A stretch of 64,000 nt of DNA, from the sequence record PQ724394.1. One strand, 5' to 3'. The stretch is from a phage. The translations under genes were made by a program, and so were the position numbers. Positions 1 to 6,409 of this stretch are shown here, piece after piece. Below the pieces are notes generated by a model. It was not told the DNA's origin and ran no database searches. It saw only the letters and a list, made by a program, of their open reading frames with translations. Every line of letters starts with the position of its first letter. Position 1 is the first letter of the stretch.

Positions 1-16
1 CACCTTAGACCCTACT

Positions 17-1390
17 ATGTTGGATTCTTCTCAAAGTTATGGACTTGAATTTATAAAACAAGCTTCTAGGGAAGGCGCGTTGGCCCATTTAGGTATAACT
101 AATGAGATGCTAACACCTGGTACTGAAGGTCCACAAGGCCCTAAAGGAGACCCAGGGCCGCAAGGTATTCAAGGTAACCCGGGTCCTAAAGGAGAAAAGG
201 GCGAACCAGGACCAGCAGGTCCAGAAGGTCCTAAAGGAGACCCGGGTTCACCAGGAAAAGAAGGCCCTCAGGGTTTACAAGGGGCCCAAGGAGAAGTAGG
301 ACCGCAAGGACCACAAGGTCCTATAGGCCCAGCAGGTTTGGTGTGGAAGGGAGCCTGGGATGAATCTACCCAATACTCTAAAGACGATGCAGTTGGATAC
401 CAGGGAGCTTCTTATTTTTGCATCAGTTCTAATACAGGAACAATACCTCCTAGCGAAGGAGTTTGGGCGCTATTGGCTAATATCGGTGCACCAGGTCCTC
501 AAGGACCAACCGGCCCAACCGGCCCTCAAGGTCCACAAGGCGCGCCAGGCCAAGATGGTAATGGGTTTATCTGGGCCGGAAACTGGGCCCTTGGTTCGTC
601 TTATTATATAAACGATTTGGTCCAGTGCGAAGGGTCTTCTTGGATTTGTATCCAGGATAATATAGCAAATAATGATAGTTATCCCGGGAGTGGAGACCTG
701 TGGGCCGATTATTGGAATTTATTTGTAAAAGAAGGGCGTCCAGGAAATCCCGGAGAAGATGGTGCACCTGGAGAGCAAGGCGCCCAAGGACCGCAAGGCG
801 ACCCGGGTCCTAAAGGTGAAAAGGGCGAACCTGGGCCACAAGGTATTCAAGGTCCTATAGGGCCCGCAGGTGCTCCTGGTAAAGATGCAGTATTTGATGT
901 TGATTCTTTAACCCAGTCTCAATTAAAATCTTTATATGATAAACTTTTCCCATTCTATCCACCTAGATATTGGAAAGGCTCTTTAAGATTTGATAAGCCT
1001 CTGAACACTTCAGAGTGGAAGGAAATACGTTTATGGGACCTTAATATGGTTCTTCATGTTCGTATGTATTCGTCTTTAGGCATCCATATAAGGGCTACTA
1101 ATGCGGGTCTTACCAACAGACTTGATATTAAAAGATTTACCAACTATGAAAACGGGATAGAATGCGCCAACTGGAGTAATGTTCTGTGGTCCTCAACTCC
1201 TGAATTATTCGACGATTTGGCTTATTCTAGTGCAAGACAATTTAACCGTTACGAAATATTTGACCGTGATACTAGAAAATACTACACTGTATCTGTGTTT
1301 ATTGTAGGCGGCCCTCTTAATACGACTACAGATATCCCTGTTGAAGTTTTATTTTCTGTCGAAGACCATACTAATATGAGCCCATTTTAA
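17..1390 (+). CDS. Collagen-like repeat protein (three Gly-X-Y blocks separated by Trp-rich inserts, ~190-aa C-terminal globular region); frame is open to the window start so the 5' end may be truncated
   Basis: Translation shows long [10 protein letters not shown]-type triplet runs (about nt 128-337, 488-568, 737-889); two repeated non-collagen inserts with W-x-G-x-W; no stop in frame upstream of the first ATG. Confidence 0.6.
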
Positions 1391-1399
1391 GGAGGTCGA

Positions 1400-2266
1400 A
1401 TGATTACACTTAAAATAAATGGTCCTAGATATGAATTAGTTGGAAGAACTGTAACCTTTTATACCGGGTTTGTATTACCGCCCGGTTCTACTCTAGACGA
1501 TGTAGAAATTAATTGGTATAAAAACGATGTCCATATTCCACAACTTCCTACCGAGGACCCTTTTGAATTAAATTTGTGGGAAGTAGGATTCCCTGCTGCC
1601 GGAACATTTTATGCGACTATAACAAATAAGAAAAGTGGAGAAATAACTAAGAGTAATGAAATAGAACTTGAAATAGGTACCCTTCCAAGAAGGGTTATTT
1701 TAGATATAAATTCAAGACGATTAATATACGCTAATATAGGAGAAACTGTTGCACTTAGGCCATCATGTAGAGTAGAGCCTTCTTATGCGGAAAGGGTTTG
1801 TAGATGGTACAGAGACGGAGTCGAATTATCTAAAGATGAAGATATCGATATATTAATAGACAACTCTAGTAAATTCGGGGAGTATACATTAAAATCTATA
1901 GGAACTTGTGAAGGAGCATATATCCCTGCTTCTGAAGAACTTTTAGTTGAAATAAAACCTAGGGATGATGTATTGCAGTGCCCTTTCATATATGATAACG
2001 ACCTTAATGCTTATTTACCATATGGCGGTGGAAGAAATGAATCGTATATGTGGATAGGTTGGTGGGTATGGGACGAAATAAGAGAAGCCGTTAGATTGGG
2101 AGAAGATTGGACTTTGGATATAAACAACAGCCCATACAAGTATAAATGTGAGTTACAAAAAGTAGCCGACCTTTTGTCTAAGTATCCTGAAGTAGAGATA
2201 CAAGAGTCGAGAAATGGCTACATCTTAGAAAGGAAGGACTTAGTTTACGTCCCTCCTGAAAAATAA
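1400..2266 (+). CDS. Hoc-like paralogue: Ig-like N-terminal region plus Hoc-type C-terminal domain
   Basis: C-terminus SYMWIGWWVWDEI...YPEVEIQESRNGYILER aligns with the Hoc C-terminus SAYIWCGWWVMDEI...YPEVDVQESRNGRIIHR encoded at 2540-3952; RBS aggaggt before ATG; terminator follows. Confidence 0.6.
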   Translation: MITLKINGPRYELVGRTVTFYTGFVLPPGSTLDDVEINWYKNDVHIPQLPTEDPFELNLWEVGFPAAGTFYATITNKKSGEITKSNEIELEIGTLPRRVILDINSRRLIYANIGETVALRPSCRVEPSYAERVCRWYRDGVELSKDEDIDILIDNSSKFGEYTLKSIGTCEGAYIPASEELLVEIKPRDDVLQCPFIYDNDLNAYLPYGGGRNESYMWIGWWVWDEIREAVRLGEDWTLDINNSPYKYKCELQKVADLLSKYPEVEIQESRNGYILERKDLVYVPPEK

Positions 2267-2267
2267 T

Positions 2268-2289
2268 AAAGGGCCTACGGGCCCTTTTT
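2268..2289 (+). terminator. Rho-independent terminator after the collagen-like/Hoc-like gene pair
   Basis: aaa-gggcc-tacg-ggccc-ttttt hairpin followed by T-run. Confidence 0.7.
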
Positions 2290-2454
2290 GGTTTGTAAAA
2301 TTTTATCTATAGTAGCTATTATCCCGAAAAATGAACTAATGCATGAGAAAAGAGCCAATATAGAAGCAAACAACCCACTAGTTAATGAAATTAACGAAAA
2401 CAAAAACAGCACTATAAAGAAAACCAACAACCCTATATCTTTGTTAAATTTCAT
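2275..2454 (-). CDS. Small hydrophobic protein (59 aa, two predicted TM segments), hypothetical
   Basis: Own translation: MKFNKDIGLLVFFIVLFLFSLISLTSGLFASILALFSC...; below the ORF-track size cutoff; lies between two convergent terminators. Confidence 0.3.
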   Translation of the reverse strand: MKFNKDIGLLVFFIVLFLFSLISLTSGLFASILALFSCISSFFGIIATIDKILQTKKGP

Positions 2455-2517
2455 ATATCCACCTATTAAAAATTATTCGTCAATAACTTAATCTCCCGAA
2501 ACACTATCATAAACTAA

Positions 2518-2541
2518 ATAAGGGCCTTGCGGCCCTTTATT
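2518..2541 (-). terminator. Rho-independent terminator downstream of hoc (bidirectional potential)
   Basis: gggcc-ttgc-ggccc hairpin flanked by A/T runs on both sides. Confidence 0.65.
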
Positions 2542-3952
2542 AATAAACGTAATCGTAAATAATTCCAGCATCCAAAGCGGTTCTGTGAATAATTCTACCA
2601 TTACGAGATTCCTGTACATCAACCTCAGGATAATCGGCTACCATTTTTTGAAGGGTATAACGATGGAGATAATATTCACTATCAGGTTCGTCAGTTTTCC
2701 AGTCTTTGCCTTCAAGGGTCATTTTCTGAATTTCGTCCATAACCCACCAACCACACCAAATATAAGCTGAATTACGAACTGGTAGCGGATGAACGTAAGG
2801 TAGTTCGCCCTCTGGTTCAGGAGCTACTTTAGCCGTAATTGTTACATTACCTGTTTTTTTGACAGTCACAGGATTATAGTCGGTAGCCGAAACAACAGCA
2901 GAAACTTCAATAACCTGTGAACCTTCAGCGCTTGTGTCAATTACTAATGTATCCGTAGCACCCACAACAGGTGAACCATCTTTCTTCCAAGAATAAGCAA
3001 AAGTAGCACCACTAGGCGCACCGACTACCGTGGCTTTAAAAGAAGCCGGGATTCCTTCAGAGACAGTAATAGAAGCAGGCGTTAAATTAACAGAAACACC
3101 TGTCATAGTCTTTTTAGTAATTGTTACACTTCCTGTTTTGGTAACGGTTAAATCATTATAATCCGTACCTTTTAGGAGTACCGAAACTTCAATAGAGTAA
3201 GAACCTATTGTAGACGTATCAACAGCAAGAGTATTACTGCTTTCGCCCGGAATAATAGAACCATCTTTCTTCCAAGAATAAGTTGCATTTACGCCGGAAG
3301 GAGCACCAACTACATCCGCTTTAAACTGTGCAGATGAGTCTTTCTCTGTACTAATTGAGGCGGGCGTTAAAGTAACAGAAACACCTGATATAGTTTTCTT
3401 AACAAAAGTTACCGCAACACCTTTAGTAGCGGTACCCGGGTCATATTCAGGGGCGGTAACAGTAACTTCACAGTTCAACGTGTAATTTGCTTCTGCTGCT
3501 TCGGTTACAGTAATAGTTTTACCAGTTTGTCCAGAGATTACGCTGGTGTTACGTTTCCAAACATAAGCAATTGTTGCGCCTGCAGGTGCACCCGTCACGT
3601 TAGCAGTAACAACTTGAGATTGGCCAACTTCTTTAGAAACAGAAATAGGGTCTAAGGCCAAAGAAATAGACATGGTCTTATTAGCTACGGTAACTTCAAA
3701 AGTATCTTCAGCTACCTCAGGTTCGCCTTCAGCCGGAGTAGAAGTTGCTACTACTTTTAAAACTTTCTTACCTGCAGGTGAAGCACCTGTATATTTCAAA
3801 ACATTGGTTGCTTCTGGATTAGAAGCACCATCAATAGACCATACATATGTAATGGTTCCTTCTACAGCTGCACCTGTTGCGGTAGCAGTGTAGTTAGCAC
3901 TTTCGCCTATTTTAATAGACGCTGTGCCGGCTATACTTACAGTAAAAGCCAT
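2540..3952 (-). CDS. hoc: Highly immunogenic outer capsid protein Hoc (expanded, several Ig-like repeats)
   Basis: Repeated Ig-like modules (TYVWSIDG, AYVWKRN, TYSWKKDGS, AYSWKKDGS) and C-terminus matching T4 Hoc as I recall it (PEPEGELPYVHPLP...WCGWWVMDEIQKM...YPEVDVQESRNG). Confidence 0.8.
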   Translation of the reverse strand: MAFTVSIAGTASIKIGESANYTATATGAAVEGTITYVWSIDGASNPEATNVLKYTGASPAGKKVLKVVATSTPAEGEPEVAEDTFEVTVANKTMSISLALDPISVSKEVGQSQVVTANVTGAPAGATIAYVWKRNTSVISGQTGKTITVTEAAEANYTLNCEVTVTAPEYDPGTATKGVAVTFVKKTISGVSVTLTPASISTEKDSSAQFKADVVGAPSGVNATYSWKKDGSIIPGESSNTLAVDTSTIGSYSIEVSVLLKGTDYNDLTVTKTGSVTITKKTMTGVSVNLTPASITVSEGIPASFKATVVGAPSGATFAYSWKKDGSPVVGATDTLVIDTSAEGSQVIEVSAVVSATDYNPVTVKKTGNVTITAKVAPEPEGELPYVHPLPVRNSAYIWCGWWVMDEIQKMTLEGKDWKTDEPDSEYYLHRYTLQKMVADYPEVDVQESRNGRIIHRTALDAGIIYDYVY

Positions 3953-3961
3953 AGTTTACCC

Positions 3962-4633
3962 TTATTTTAAAGTTACAAAAGATGAATTACGTGTTTCACG
4001 TACTAATACTGAGCCATTACGATTGATGTAATAAATCAGACTGAATAATGTTTGGTGGGCAGAAGGGTGTTGGAAATCTTTAGGACGTTCTTTCCAATCA
4101 GGGGTTTCAGAAATCCATTGATAAATCCACCAAGGAACAGTACAGTAACCAGGGTTTTTACCAATAAGCAAAAGATTAGGACTAAAGTTTTCAGGCAAAG
4201 AGAATACAGGTTTTTCCGATTCAATAACCTTGGTTACGGCCTCTTTGAATTTCTCTTCGACAAACGGAACATCTTCTTCAATAATCTCTACCTTAGGAAG
4301 TTCGGCTACCTCAATAACTTCAACTACAGCTTCAGGGGCATCAAATAATAGGGTAGCTTCTTCTTTGGCAGGTTCCGCGCCATCAACAAATTCGTTAGCG
4401 CCTGTAAGTTCGTCGGCGGCATCAATCAAATCAGAAATAGACAAACCTTCGGTTTCTGGAAGTGGTTCATCAGCCAAGGCTTTAAGGCCTTCAGAGATAT
4501 CGATAATCAAATTATCAAACGAACGGGTTTTCTTAAGTTTTAAACCGAATTGTTCGCCGTATTCGATTAACTTAGCTTTAGCTTCTTTTTTATCTTCGAG
4601 TGCACGAAGCTCTTCAATATATTGAGTATCCAT
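3962..4633 (-). CDS. inh: Putative Inh (inhibitor of prohead protease), positional assignment
   Basis: 223 aa acidic protein located between hoc and uvsW as in T4; minus-strand late promoter upstream. Confidence 0.45.
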   Translation of the reverse strand: MDTQYIEELRALEDKKEAKAKLIEYGEQFGLKLKKTRSFDNLIIDISEGLKALADEPLPETEGLSISDLIDAADELTGANEFVDGAEPAKEEATLLFDAPEAVVEVIEVAELPKVEIIEEDVPFVEEKFKEAVTKVIESEKPVFSLPENFSPNLLLIGKNPGYCTVPWWIYQWISETPDWKERPKDFQHPSAHQTLFSLIYYINRNGSVLVRETRNSSFVTLK

Positions 4634-4652
4634 AATTAGTCTCTTGTTGGTG

Positions 4653-4660
4653 TATAAATA
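4653..4660 (+). promoter_or_regulatory. T4-type late promoter (TATAAATA) upstream of uvsW
   Basis: Exact TATAAATA about 29 nt upstream of the uvsW ATG. Confidence 0.55.
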
Positions 4661-4666
4661 TAATTA

Positions 4667-4674
4667 TATTTATA
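4667..4674 (-). promoter_or_regulatory. T4-type late promoter (TATAAATA on minus strand) upstream of inh
   Basis: Reverse complement of tatttata gives TATAAATA about 33 nt upstream of the inh start. Confidence 0.5.
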
Positions 4675-4688
4675 ACTGAGAATTAGAC

Positions 4689-6185
4689 ATGCAAATTCAA
4701 GTACATTTTGATAATTTTAGTCATGTTCGTGTTGAGTGTGATGAATCCACCTTCTACGAACTCAGAGACTATTTCAGCTTTGAAGCTGATGGATATAAAT
4801 TTAACCCTAAATACCGTTACGGGCAATGGGATGGGAGAATTCGTCTTCTAGATTATAACCGTAAACTTCCGTATGGTCTAGTCCCACAAATTAAAAAATT
4901 CGCTGACCAGTTTGAATACTCTCTTTGGATAGACCCACGTATTCTTGAACAGGAAGATATTTCACGTGAAGATTTTGACTCATGGGTAGCTTCACAGGAG
5001 ATTTATTCAGGTTCTACCAGGATTGAGCCACATTGGTATCAGAATGAAGCCGTATACAACGGTCTGACAAAACGTCGTGCAATTCTGAATTTACCTACAT
5101 CTGCAGGTAAATCATTGATTCAGGCGCTCCTGAGTCGATATTACGTTGAGAACTATGAAGGTAAAATTCTTATCTTAGTTCCTACTACTGCACTTGTCGA
5201 TCAGATGATTAATGACTTCATTGATTATCGTTTGTTCCCTAAAGCTGCTATGCTTGGTATTCGTTCAGGTACTGCTCGTGATTCCGATGCAATGATTTAT
5301 GTTTCAACTTATCAAACGGCTATTAAACAACCTAAAGAATGGTTTGCTCAGTTTGGTATGTTTATGAACGACGAATGCCATTTGGCGACAGGTAAATCAA
5401 TTTCTACCATCATCGAAGGCCTTACCAATTGTATGTTTAAATTCGGTTTGTCCGGTTCTTTAAAAGACGGTAAAGCCAATTTAATGCAATATATGGGTTT
5501 GTTTGGTGATGTGTTTAAGCCAGTATCCACTTCACAGTTAATGGAAGAAGGACAGGTTACAGACCTTAAAATCAACAGTATCTTCCTTCGTTATCCGGAT
5601 GAATTCACTGTTAAGATGAAAGGTAAAGATTACCAATCAGAAATCAAGGTCATTACTAAGGCTACTCGTCGTAATAAATGGGTTGCTAATTTAGCTGTTA
5701 AACTCGCTAAGAAAGAAGAGAACGTATTCCTGATGTTTAAAAACATCGAACACGGTAAAACTCTTTTTGAAATGGTTAAAGAGCAACATAAAGAAGTTTA
5801 TTACGTATCAGGTGAAGTTAATACCGAAACGCGTAATGCTCTGAAAGTAATGGCGGAAAATGGTAAGGGTATTATTGTTGTGGCAAGTTATGGTGTGTTC
5901 TCTACTGGTATTTCCGTTAAGAACCTTCACCATGTTGTATTTGCTCATCCAGTAAAATCCAAAATCATTGTACTCCAGACAATTGGTCGTGTACTCCGTA
6001 AACATGCTTCTAAATCAACAGCACAAGTTTGGGACATTATAGACGACATGGGCGTTAAGCCTAAATCAGCAAATGCTAAAAAGAAATATGTTCATTTGAA
6101 TTACGCATTAAAACATGCCTTAGAACGTATTCAACGTTATGCTGACGAGAAATTTAATTACGTAATGAAACAGGTGGATTTATGA
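4689..6185 (+). CDS. uvsW: UvsW RNA-DNA/DNA helicase
   Basis: Near-identical to T4 UvsW over its length (MQIQVHFDNFSHVRVECDESTFYELRDYFSFEADGYKFNP...; helicase motifs LNLPTSAGKS, DECH). Confidence 0.9.
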   Translation: MQIQVHFDNFSHVRVECDESTFYELRDYFSFEADGYKFNPKYRYGQWDGRIRLLDYNRKLPYGLVPQIKKFADQFEYSLWIDPRILEQEDISREDFDSWVASQEIYSGSTRIEPHWYQNEAVYNGLTKRRAILNLPTSAGKSLIQALLSRYYVENYEGKILILVPTTALVDQMINDFIDYRLFPKAAMLGIRSGTARDSDAMIYVSTYQTAIKQPKEWFAQFGMFMNDECHLATGKSISTIIEGLTNCMFKFGLSGSLKDGKANLMQYMGLFGDVFKPVSTSQLMEEGQVTDLKINSIFLRYPDEFTVKMKGKDYQSEIKVITKATRRNKWVANLAVKLAKKEENVFLMFKNIEHGKTLFEMVKEQHKEVYYVSGEVNTETRNALKVMAENGKGIIVVASYGVFSTGISVKNLHHVVFAHPVKSKIIVLQTIGRVLRKHASKSTAQVWDIIDDMGVKPKSANAKKKYVHLNYALKHALERIQRYADEKFNYVMKQVDL

Positions 6186-6409
6186 AGTCCTTTAAAGAAG
6201 TTATCTATGAAGCCTCTATCGAGAGCTTCATGTCTAAAATTAGTTCTTGTCAGACCATGGAAGGTCTGGAGGAATTAGAGAAGTATTACAAAACTCGTAG
6301 TAAGGAAGCCGAACTTCGTGATTCGGATGATATCAGCGTACGCGATGCATTGGCTGGTAAGAGAGCCGAATTGGAGTCGATGGACGACGAGGAAGAGGAA
6401 GATTTCTAA
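6182..6409 (+). CDS. uvsW.1: UvsW.1-like small acidic protein
   Basis: 75 aa ORF overlapping uvsW stop (ATGA), acidic C-terminus, same position and size as T4 uvsW.1. Confidence 0.6.
   Translation: MKSFKEVIYEASIESFMSKISSCQTMEGLEELEKYYKTRSKEAELRDSDDISVRDALAGKRAELESMDDEEEEDF

Follow-up and report, generated by a model that had tools for sequence, protein, structure and literature searches.

Introduction

On T4 heads, Hoc serves as the principal display platform, and a link between Hoc and mucus adherence has been made. The C-terminal domain of T4 Hoc has been solved on the gp23* hexamer by cryo-EM, and the residues with which it contacts the capsid have been listed (Fokine et al. 2023, PMC10385173). 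Hocs in general are acidic, with a pI of ~4–5 (PMC10385173). Second Hocs have also been noted in print: in Serratia phage Muldoon, the second Hoc is the shorter one, with 314 aa that make up two Ig-like domains and a C-domain, and Enterobacter phage PG7 encodes two Hoc-like proteins; Fokine et al. (2023) took such second Hocs to be a means of functionalising the surface of the capsid (PMC10385173). Others, i.e., those of Aeromonas phage 65, Salmonella phage CGG4-1, JS10, IME08, and dhaeg, are known from database annotations only.

Here, we analyzed a locus with two Hoc genes in a 64,000-nucleotide stretch of phage DNA (sequence record PQ724394.1, hereafter “the window”). The shorter of the two genes, “short hoc”, has annotated orthologues: the records of JS10 and IME08 call it “hoc head outer capsid protein”, those of dhaeg and dhabil “head outer capsid protein”, that of CGG4-1 “Hoc I”, and that of phage 65 “hoc-2, second copy of the hoc gene”. 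Short Hoc is thus already known: since it is annotated in near-identical phages and the phenomenon of second Hocs is in print, the finding of a second Hoc adds little by itself, and the new parts may instead be the pairing of short hoc with a fibre gene and the Hoc-like C-domain of the neighboring protein Inh. Overall, sequence comparison and structure prediction lead us to conclude that short hoc probably encodes a working second Hoc-type head-decoration protein.

Results

Two Hoc genes at one Dhakavirus locus

The window derives from a T4-like coliphage of the genus Dhakavirus, with 96–97% identity over positions 1–6200 to Escherichia phages dhaeg, dhabil, CLB_P2, and Ec2-ASingh. The features of this region are, in order:

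1–1390, plus strand: collagen-like fibre gene, its 5′ end lost at the window edge (the dhaeg version encodes 501 aa)
1389–1396, plus strand: Shine–Dalgarno sequence of short hoc, AAGGAGGT, overlapping the TAA stop of the fibre gene (1388–1390)
1400–2266, plus strand: short hoc, with an ATG start, encoding 288 aa (33 kDa, pI 4.65)
2268–2287: G+C-rich hairpin AAAGGGCCTACGGGCCCTTT followed by a T-run, terminator-like, directly 3′ of short hoc
2275–2454, minus strand: small unannotated ORF
2520–2537, minus strand: terminator-like hairpin behind long hoc
2540–3952, minus strand: canonical “long” Hoc gene, 470 aa, pI 4.84
3962–4633, minus strand: inh, prohead protease inhibitor (PHROG 1051 at 5e-91)
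4667–4674, minus strand: T4-type late promoter TATAAATA, serving inh and long hoc, at a site also found in dhaeg
4689–6185, plus strand: uvsW

When all six frames of the window were scanned for the Hoc C-domain motif, three genes only were found, i.e., short hoc, long hoc, and inh; the window has two separate Hoc genes plus an Inh with a related domain, and the pI values above show short Hoc to be acidic, as is long Hoc. Across phage records, a tblastn search returned 1,246 places in 1,208 records, so that few of these records have more than one Hoc-type gene.

Domain layout of short Hoc

An earlier note on this DNA had described short Hoc as a paralogue that shares the C-terminal domain of the canonical Hoc. 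Formal comparison bears this out: BLASTP aligned short Hoc to the 470-aa Hoc at E = 3e-19 (27% identity over 230 residues), most strongly at the C-terminus, and a MAFFT alignment of C-domains showed the two to be homologous, with 35% identity over ~95 columns and the signature motifs R-x3-Y-x-W-x-GWWV-x-DEI and QESRNG in common. Both proteins also match PHROG 1149 (“Hoc-like head decoration”), short Hoc at 1e-42 and long Hoc at 3e-123, with an additional match of short Hoc to PHROG 21694 at 9e-12. Against PDB sequences, phmmer aligned residues 209–279 of short Hoc to residues 297–365 of T4 Hoc (E = 1.2e-14).

An AlphaFold2 model of short Hoc, built from an input of ten sequences (mean pLDDT 85), consists of two Ig-like beta-sandwiches, at residues 1–93 and 97–187, followed by a poorly defined linker and the C-domain:

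1400–1684, plus strand: Ig-like domain 1 (Ig1), residues 1–95, pLDDT 89–96, the domain farthest from the capsid-binding domain
1685–1963, plus strand: Ig-like domain 2 (Ig2), residues 96–188, a beta-sandwich in the model, pLDDT 82–93
1964–2263, plus strand: linker and Hoc-type capsid-binding C-domain, residues 189–288, from the phmmer alignment to T4 Hoc

The two beta-sandwiches agree with the Ig-like modules previously read in the N-terminal part, as does the top Foldseek PDB match of the model, an Ig-domain fragment of RB49 Hoc (3SHS, E = 1e-11); the Pfam family Ig_2 scored 18.7 bits on short Hoc, under its cut-off of 27. The modelled C-domain has a beta-beta-helix-helix-beta-beta order, with W221/W222 opening helix 1. 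Its likeness to Hoc was judged by sequence and secondary structure, the whole-model Foldseek list being mostly made of tandem-Ig matches.

Capsid contacts and docking site

That the C-terminal domain of Hoc is its capsid-attachment module had been put forward in the earlier note, and cryo-EM of T4 Hoc agrees (PMC10385173). We compared the gp23-contact residues of T4 Hoc (Y293, H295, the R300–D313 set, and Q354–Y360) with their counterparts in short Hoc, and 13 of these 15 residues are identical. The correspondence, including one neighboring position, is as follows:

T4 R300: R212 in short Hoc
T4 Y304: Y216
T4 W306: W218
T4 W309 and W310: W221 and W222
T4 D313: D225
T4 Q354-ESRNG-Y360: Q268–Y274, complete
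T4 Y293: replaced by F196, conservative
T4 H295: replaced by Y198, conservative
T4 H299: replaced by G211; H299 is not on the conserved list of the cryo-EM paper (PMC10385173)

The gp23 gene lies outside the window, and the gp23 of dhaeg, a phage ~97% identical to the window over the compared region, was used instead: its docking segment G326–R344 is identical to that of T4 at 18 of 19 positions, with D336 and R344 kept. Since both the contact residues and the gp23 docking segment are conserved, we infer, reasonably in our view, that short and long Hoc would share or compete for the sites at hexamer centres.

The same residues bear on an alternative that we consider unlikely, namely that short Hoc binds a subset of capsomers, or binds gp23 during assembly as a non-virion protein, without competing with long Hoc. 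The sites named for such a subset are vertex-proximal or mid-section ones. A point in its favor is the loop next to R212, which carries an insertion in the Dhakavirus and CGG4-1 copies and in metagenomic relatives: together with the H299→G replacement, this insertion alters the T4 loop that makes a (charge) contact with gp23 subunit A. The loop around G211 was modelled with low AlphaFold2 confidence, and the capsid affinity or orientation of short Hoc could differ from that of T4 Hoc. However, the central ESRNG loop and the W-W start of the helix are intact, and in T4 these elements touch all six gp23 subunits, and the alignment shows lineage members outside the enterobacterial clade (those of Erwinia and Aeromonas phages) to be without the insertion, which is therefore not a lineage-wide trait.

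Lineage and selection

In an NJ tree of C-domains (no bootstrap), short Hocs of different phages cluster with one another and not with the canonical Hoc of their own phage. In the short-Hoc clade are the proteins of Dhakavirus, of CGG4-1, of Erwinia phages FBB1 and Cronus, and of Aeromonas phages AhFM11 and 65, along with several from metagenomes. Within the Dhakavirus/CGG4-1 subclade, the C-domain of short Hoc shows 63–94% identity, against 35% to the local long Hoc. A recent duplication of the local hoc is ruled out by these identities and by the grouping of short Hoc with fibre-linked Hocs elsewhere.

Members of this clade were seldom encountered: among 50,697 phage records, 24 had homologues of Ig1–Ig2, and when 1.84 billion representative proteins were searched exhaustively with phmmer, only ~15 short proteins matched over their whole length. 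Short Hoc is thus an old, rare, and separate Hoc lineage. An alignment-based search for related loci in IMG/VR returned two loci only, one of which is CGG4-1 itself.

Selection on the gene was estimated by comparison with dhaeg and IME08 (Nei–Gojobori). The dN/dS ratio ranged from 0.03 to 0.32 in each of the three domains and thus indicates purifying selection. A pseudogene or decaying copy is ruled out by these ratios, far below 1. Decay does occur among related loci: in Pseudomonas phage PspYZU05 the pair of fibre gene and hoc has decayed, with Hoc truncated to 132 aa, the fibre gene broken, and a larger gap between the two, and in phage AP1 the N-terminal domain of the fibre persists only as a 78-aa remnant. 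These two cases speak for regarding short hoc as a redundant or decaying hoc duplicate without a function of its own, which we nevertheless hold to be highly improbable given the constraint on all three domains, a reading frame that is unbroken in all Dhakavirus copies and in at least five genera, and the grouping of its C-domain with fibre-linked Hocs and apart from long Hoc of the same locus.

Pairing with a collagen-like fibre gene

The fibre encoded immediately upstream of short hoc begins with a GHDGRG N-domain, which is conserved, and ends with an all-beta C-domain, which is variable; it also has three collagen stretches and two CBM5/12-like modules (Pfam: Collagen 6e-24, CBM_5_12 1.5e-9). 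For the fold of this C-terminal domain, Foldseek returned nothing below E = 0.01 from a low-confidence single-sequence AlphaFold2 model (all-beta, pLDDT 62), and no fold is assigned. Partner fibres across phages have collagen G-x-y stretches and one or two CBM5/12-like modules. The N-domain, ~75 residues with the pattern M-x-D-x-L-x-GHDGRG-x-F, was found in 26 phage records, all Straboviridae, and is followed directly downstream and on the same strand by a Hoc C-domain gene in 25 of them, the exception being AP1. At the junction, except in the decayed pair of PspYZU05, the two genes are separated by 1–11 nt or have overlapping stop and start codons. In a further search for homologous proteins, with the 77-aa N-domain as query, no candidate passed the word filter.

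We define this fibre/short-Hoc pair as a category in the present analysis; it corresponds to no published family, and no paper describing the pairing was found in the literature. Pairs span at least five named Straboviridae genera, with carriers in Dhakavirus, Gelderlandvirus (CGG4-1), Roskildevirus (FBB1 and Cronus), Biquartavirus (AhFM11), and Ishigurovirus (65). The arrangement of the window also recurs in JS10, dhaeg, Pantoea phage Phynn, and metagenomic contig L012, and record coordinates indicate fibre/short-hoc adjacency in TH15, ABTNLsp5, and GomatiRiver_11. A second metagenomic contig, L011, carries two tandem fibre/short-Hoc pairs beside a 932-aa Hoc. In IME08, the fibre gene beside short hoc is reduced to a 24-codon remnant (MPDNPLYGHDGRGVSLELTSESTF), and the deposited sequence of a second fibre gene, located behind gp24, has a broken frame; short hoc itself is intact and constrained.

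Such consistent pairing raises the possibility, which we rate as less likely than not, that short Hoc anchors the collagen-like fibre: Ig1 and Ig2 would hold the GHDGRG N-domain while the C-domain sits on the hexamer. This possibility elaborates the reading of short Hoc as a second decoration protein, with the head bearing collagen-like fibres that carry CBM5/12 modules and a variable tip. Beyond the 25 downstream hoc genes among 26 N-domain records, it is favored by the tandem pairs of L011, where each fibre has its own short Hoc, and by full-length Ig1–Ig2 matches (the 24 records and ~15 proteins above) being confined to pair-carrying phages. Ig1 is also the better conserved Ig domain (mean pairwise identity across the lineage of 39%, vs 29% for Ig2, which holds most of the amino acid differences between short Hoc and its dhaeg counterpart), and is the sole one left in Cronus, whose short Hoc consists of Ig1 and the C-domain, the second Ig domain missing. 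Two features of the locus are harder to accommodate: a collagen fibre is expected to be trimeric whereas T4 has one Hoc per hexamer, which makes the stoichiometry awkward, and the short hoc of IME08 has stayed intact and constrained despite the loss of both of its potential fibre partners to a remnant and a broken frame.

In Mantel tests, fibre N-domain similarity tracked that of Ig1 (rho 0.72, p = 0.0008) and Ig2 (0.67) more closely than that of the Hoc C-domain (0.39) or of the fibre’s own C-domain (0.36, not significant), even though the fibre C-domain sits between the fibre N-domain and Ig1/Ig2 on the DNA. This pattern is consistent with an interaction between the N-domain and Ig1/Ig2; however, the sample is 11 pairs, the result is partly driven by three close relatives, and co-inheritance plus swapping of fibre tips would give a similar picture.

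Expression signals

Because the strong Shine–Dalgarno sequence AAGGAGGT overlaps the stop codon of the fibre gene, we suggest that the fibre gene and short hoc are co-transcribed and coupled in translation. Both dhaeg and IME08 have retained this junction. Upstream of the pair, no late promoter of the TATAAATA type was found in dhaeg, JS10, or IME08; in dhaeg, a weak sigma-70-like TTGTGA-17-TAACAT could be read by eye. The missing late consensus in the lineage of the window is a second point for short Hoc binding elsewhere than at the sites of long Hoc, or acting during assembly. Against this stand the relatives, which have either late promoters or a position in the gp23–gp24 late block: in L012, L011, and Phynn, TATAAATA precedes the fibre gene by ~63–75 nt, and in FBB1 and Cronus the pair comes directly after gp24. 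Either arrangement fits a late, structural expression of the pair in these relatives.

Long Hoc and Inh

The C-domain of long Hoc is 88% identical to that of T4 Hoc. The earlier note had pointed out that long Hoc, at 470 aa, exceeds T4 Hoc in length, and the T4 protein is indeed 376 aa (PDB): residues 1–106 and 208–468 of long Hoc align to it, and the ~100 residues without a T4 counterpart can be read as one extra Ig-like domain.

Inh shares homology with the Hoc C-domain at residues 158–219, window positions 3977–4162 (hhalign probability 97%, E = 9.7e-11), and matches PHROG 1149 (9e-5). This homology hints that the Hoc C-domain may be a general, reusable gp23-binding module. It also adds to what can be said for short Hoc acting off the long-Hoc sites or as a non-virion protein: with a homologous C-domain in a prohead protein, the domain is not confined to outer decoration.

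Discussion

If short Hoc is a second head-decoration protein, our preferred reading, the following sequence of events can be envisioned. Expression of short hoc would be coupled to that of the upstream fibre gene. After head expansion, the C-domain of short Hoc would dock at the centre of the gp23 hexamer, i.e., the site of long Hoc, and the two proteins would divide the ~155 sites between them according to expression and affinity. Heads would then be decorated with two kinds of fibre in mixture, a short one with two Ig domains and a long one, both acidic, with different outward-facing domains. A literature search found no virion proteomics or imaging of short Hoc or of any two-Hoc phage and no experiments on a second Hoc; the one paper it turned up that mentions second Hocs is Fokine et al. 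(2023).

Two Hocs on one docking site would, if true, constitute a natural mixed capsid decoration, of interest to those who engineer or study therapeutic phages of the Dhakavirus type, among them CLB_P2 and JS10. The cross-genus pairing of fibre gene and short hoc further yields a specific hypothesis, a Hoc-type adaptor for head fibres: should it hold, some T4-like phages would mount collagen-like fibres on their heads via a Hoc adaptor.

Comparison with known systems

T4 Hoc (PDB 5VF3, 8T1X, and 8T9R) resembles short Hoc in its C-domain motifs (R, Y-x-W, GWWV-DEI, and QESRNGY) and predicted beta/alpha layout, its N-terminal Ig-like domains, its acidic pI, and a near-identical gp23 docking segment. 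On the other hand, T4 Hoc has three Ig-like domains vs two in short Hoc, the Ig parts of the two proteins show no similarity that can be detected in sequence, and the C-domains are only 36% identical. The genes are also placed differently: T4 hoc is located downstream of inh, while short hoc is on the strand opposite hoc–inh, downstream of the fibre gene. T4 Inh, the inhibitor of prohead protease gp21, shares with short Hoc a Hoc-type C-terminal domain and is encoded by a gene adjoining hoc, yet it has a non-Ig N-terminal part and, by annotation, is a minor head protein and not an outer decoration.

Muldoon and PG7 provide parallels, in that a long Hoc is accompanied, within a single T4-like genome, by a shorter protein that has this capsid-binding domain too. 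Neither Muldoon nor PG7 was among the phages matching the Ig region of short Hoc, and for this reason their second Hocs are probably independent cases. By comparison, hoc-2 of phage 65, Hoc I of CGG4-1, and the second hocs of JS10, IME08, and dhaeg show 37–94% identity in the Ig region and form one lineage, in which a collagen-like gene lies immediately upstream of the annotated second hoc in phage 65, CGG4-1, JS10, and dhaeg, IME08 being the exception through deletion of its fibre gene.

A domain shared by Inh and the Hoc proteins

The prohead protease inhibitor Inh, whose gene adjoins that of long Hoc, ends in GKNPGYCTVPWWIYQWISE...VLVRETRNSSF.

3962-4633, (-) strand: Inh, with a Hoc-like C-terminal domain at about 3977-4162

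When 8 Inh sequences were compared with 28 Hoc C-domains (hhalign), the two sets matched with a probability of 97% (E = 9.7e-11), and Inh matches PHROG 1149 at 9e-5. The Inh C-terminus and the capsid-binding domain of Hoc are thus homologues, and three neighbouring genes have this domain in common. Our literature search found no paper reporting such a homology between Inh and the Hoc C-domain.

The fibre partner of short Hoc

The gene directly upstream of short hoc encodes a collagen-like fibre protein in which G-x-y repeats form three stretches; it also contains two modules resembling CBM5/12.

Window 1-1390, (+) strand: collagen-like fibre gene; full-length counterpart at 2885-4390 of L001, a relative's locus
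L002 (IME08) 3938-4012: dhaeg-type fibre gene remnant of 24 codons, directly 5' of an intact short hoc
L002 (IME08) 1112-2508: second fibre gene, just 3' of gp24
L019 (Pantoea phage Phynn) 3989-5561: short Hoc with upstream fibre partner
L011 (metagenomic contig SRR10097265_5069) 1892-9695: two tandem fibre and short-Hoc pairs

No more than 26 phage records contain the GHDGRG domain found at the fibre N-terminus, and it adjoins short Hoc in all of them, with the exception of one remnant; for the C-terminal domain, an attempted fold assignment yielded none. In the second IME08 fibre gene, the N-domain and the collagen part are out of frame with each other, through what could be either a true frameshift or a sequencing error. 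The Phynn fibre partner retains both terminal domains without any collagen stretch, and the adjacent 287-aa protein, although annotated as a "capsid vertex protein", is really a short Hoc made up of two Ig-like domains plus the C-domain. The tandem pairs on the metagenomic contig (fibre and short Hoc of 488 and 278 aa, and of 586 and 286 aa) adjoin a canonical Hoc of 932 aa, giving this phage three Hoc-type proteins, a number also found in CGG4-1 (285, 944 and 279 aa).

Between and within the hoc genes

Window 2275-2454, (-) strand: 59-aa ORF with its own AGGTGG ribosome-binding site
L007 (Erwinia phage FBB1) 141-3279, (-) strand: canonical hoc position

The 59-aa ORF, flanked on either side by the terminator-like hairpins that follow the two convergent hoc genes, looks like a membrane protein with two helices (pI 9.5). 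It is intact in seven phage records, including IME341 (86% identity), and lacks annotation in dhaeg and dhabil; JS10 and IME08 have no space for it.

At the canonical position, FBB1 encodes a 175-aa Hoc consisting of one short N-terminal part and the C-domain. A separate gene a short way downstream, in the same orientation, encodes an 866-aa protein of Ig repeats that lacks a C-domain; together these could be a long Hoc split in two. The long Hoc of IME08 measures 377 aa. In the long Hoc of the window (2540-3952, - strand), about 100 residues (roughly 107-207) are unmatched in T4 Hoc, and the T4 contact residue Y360 is replaced by R (SRNGRII), while short Hoc still carries Y.
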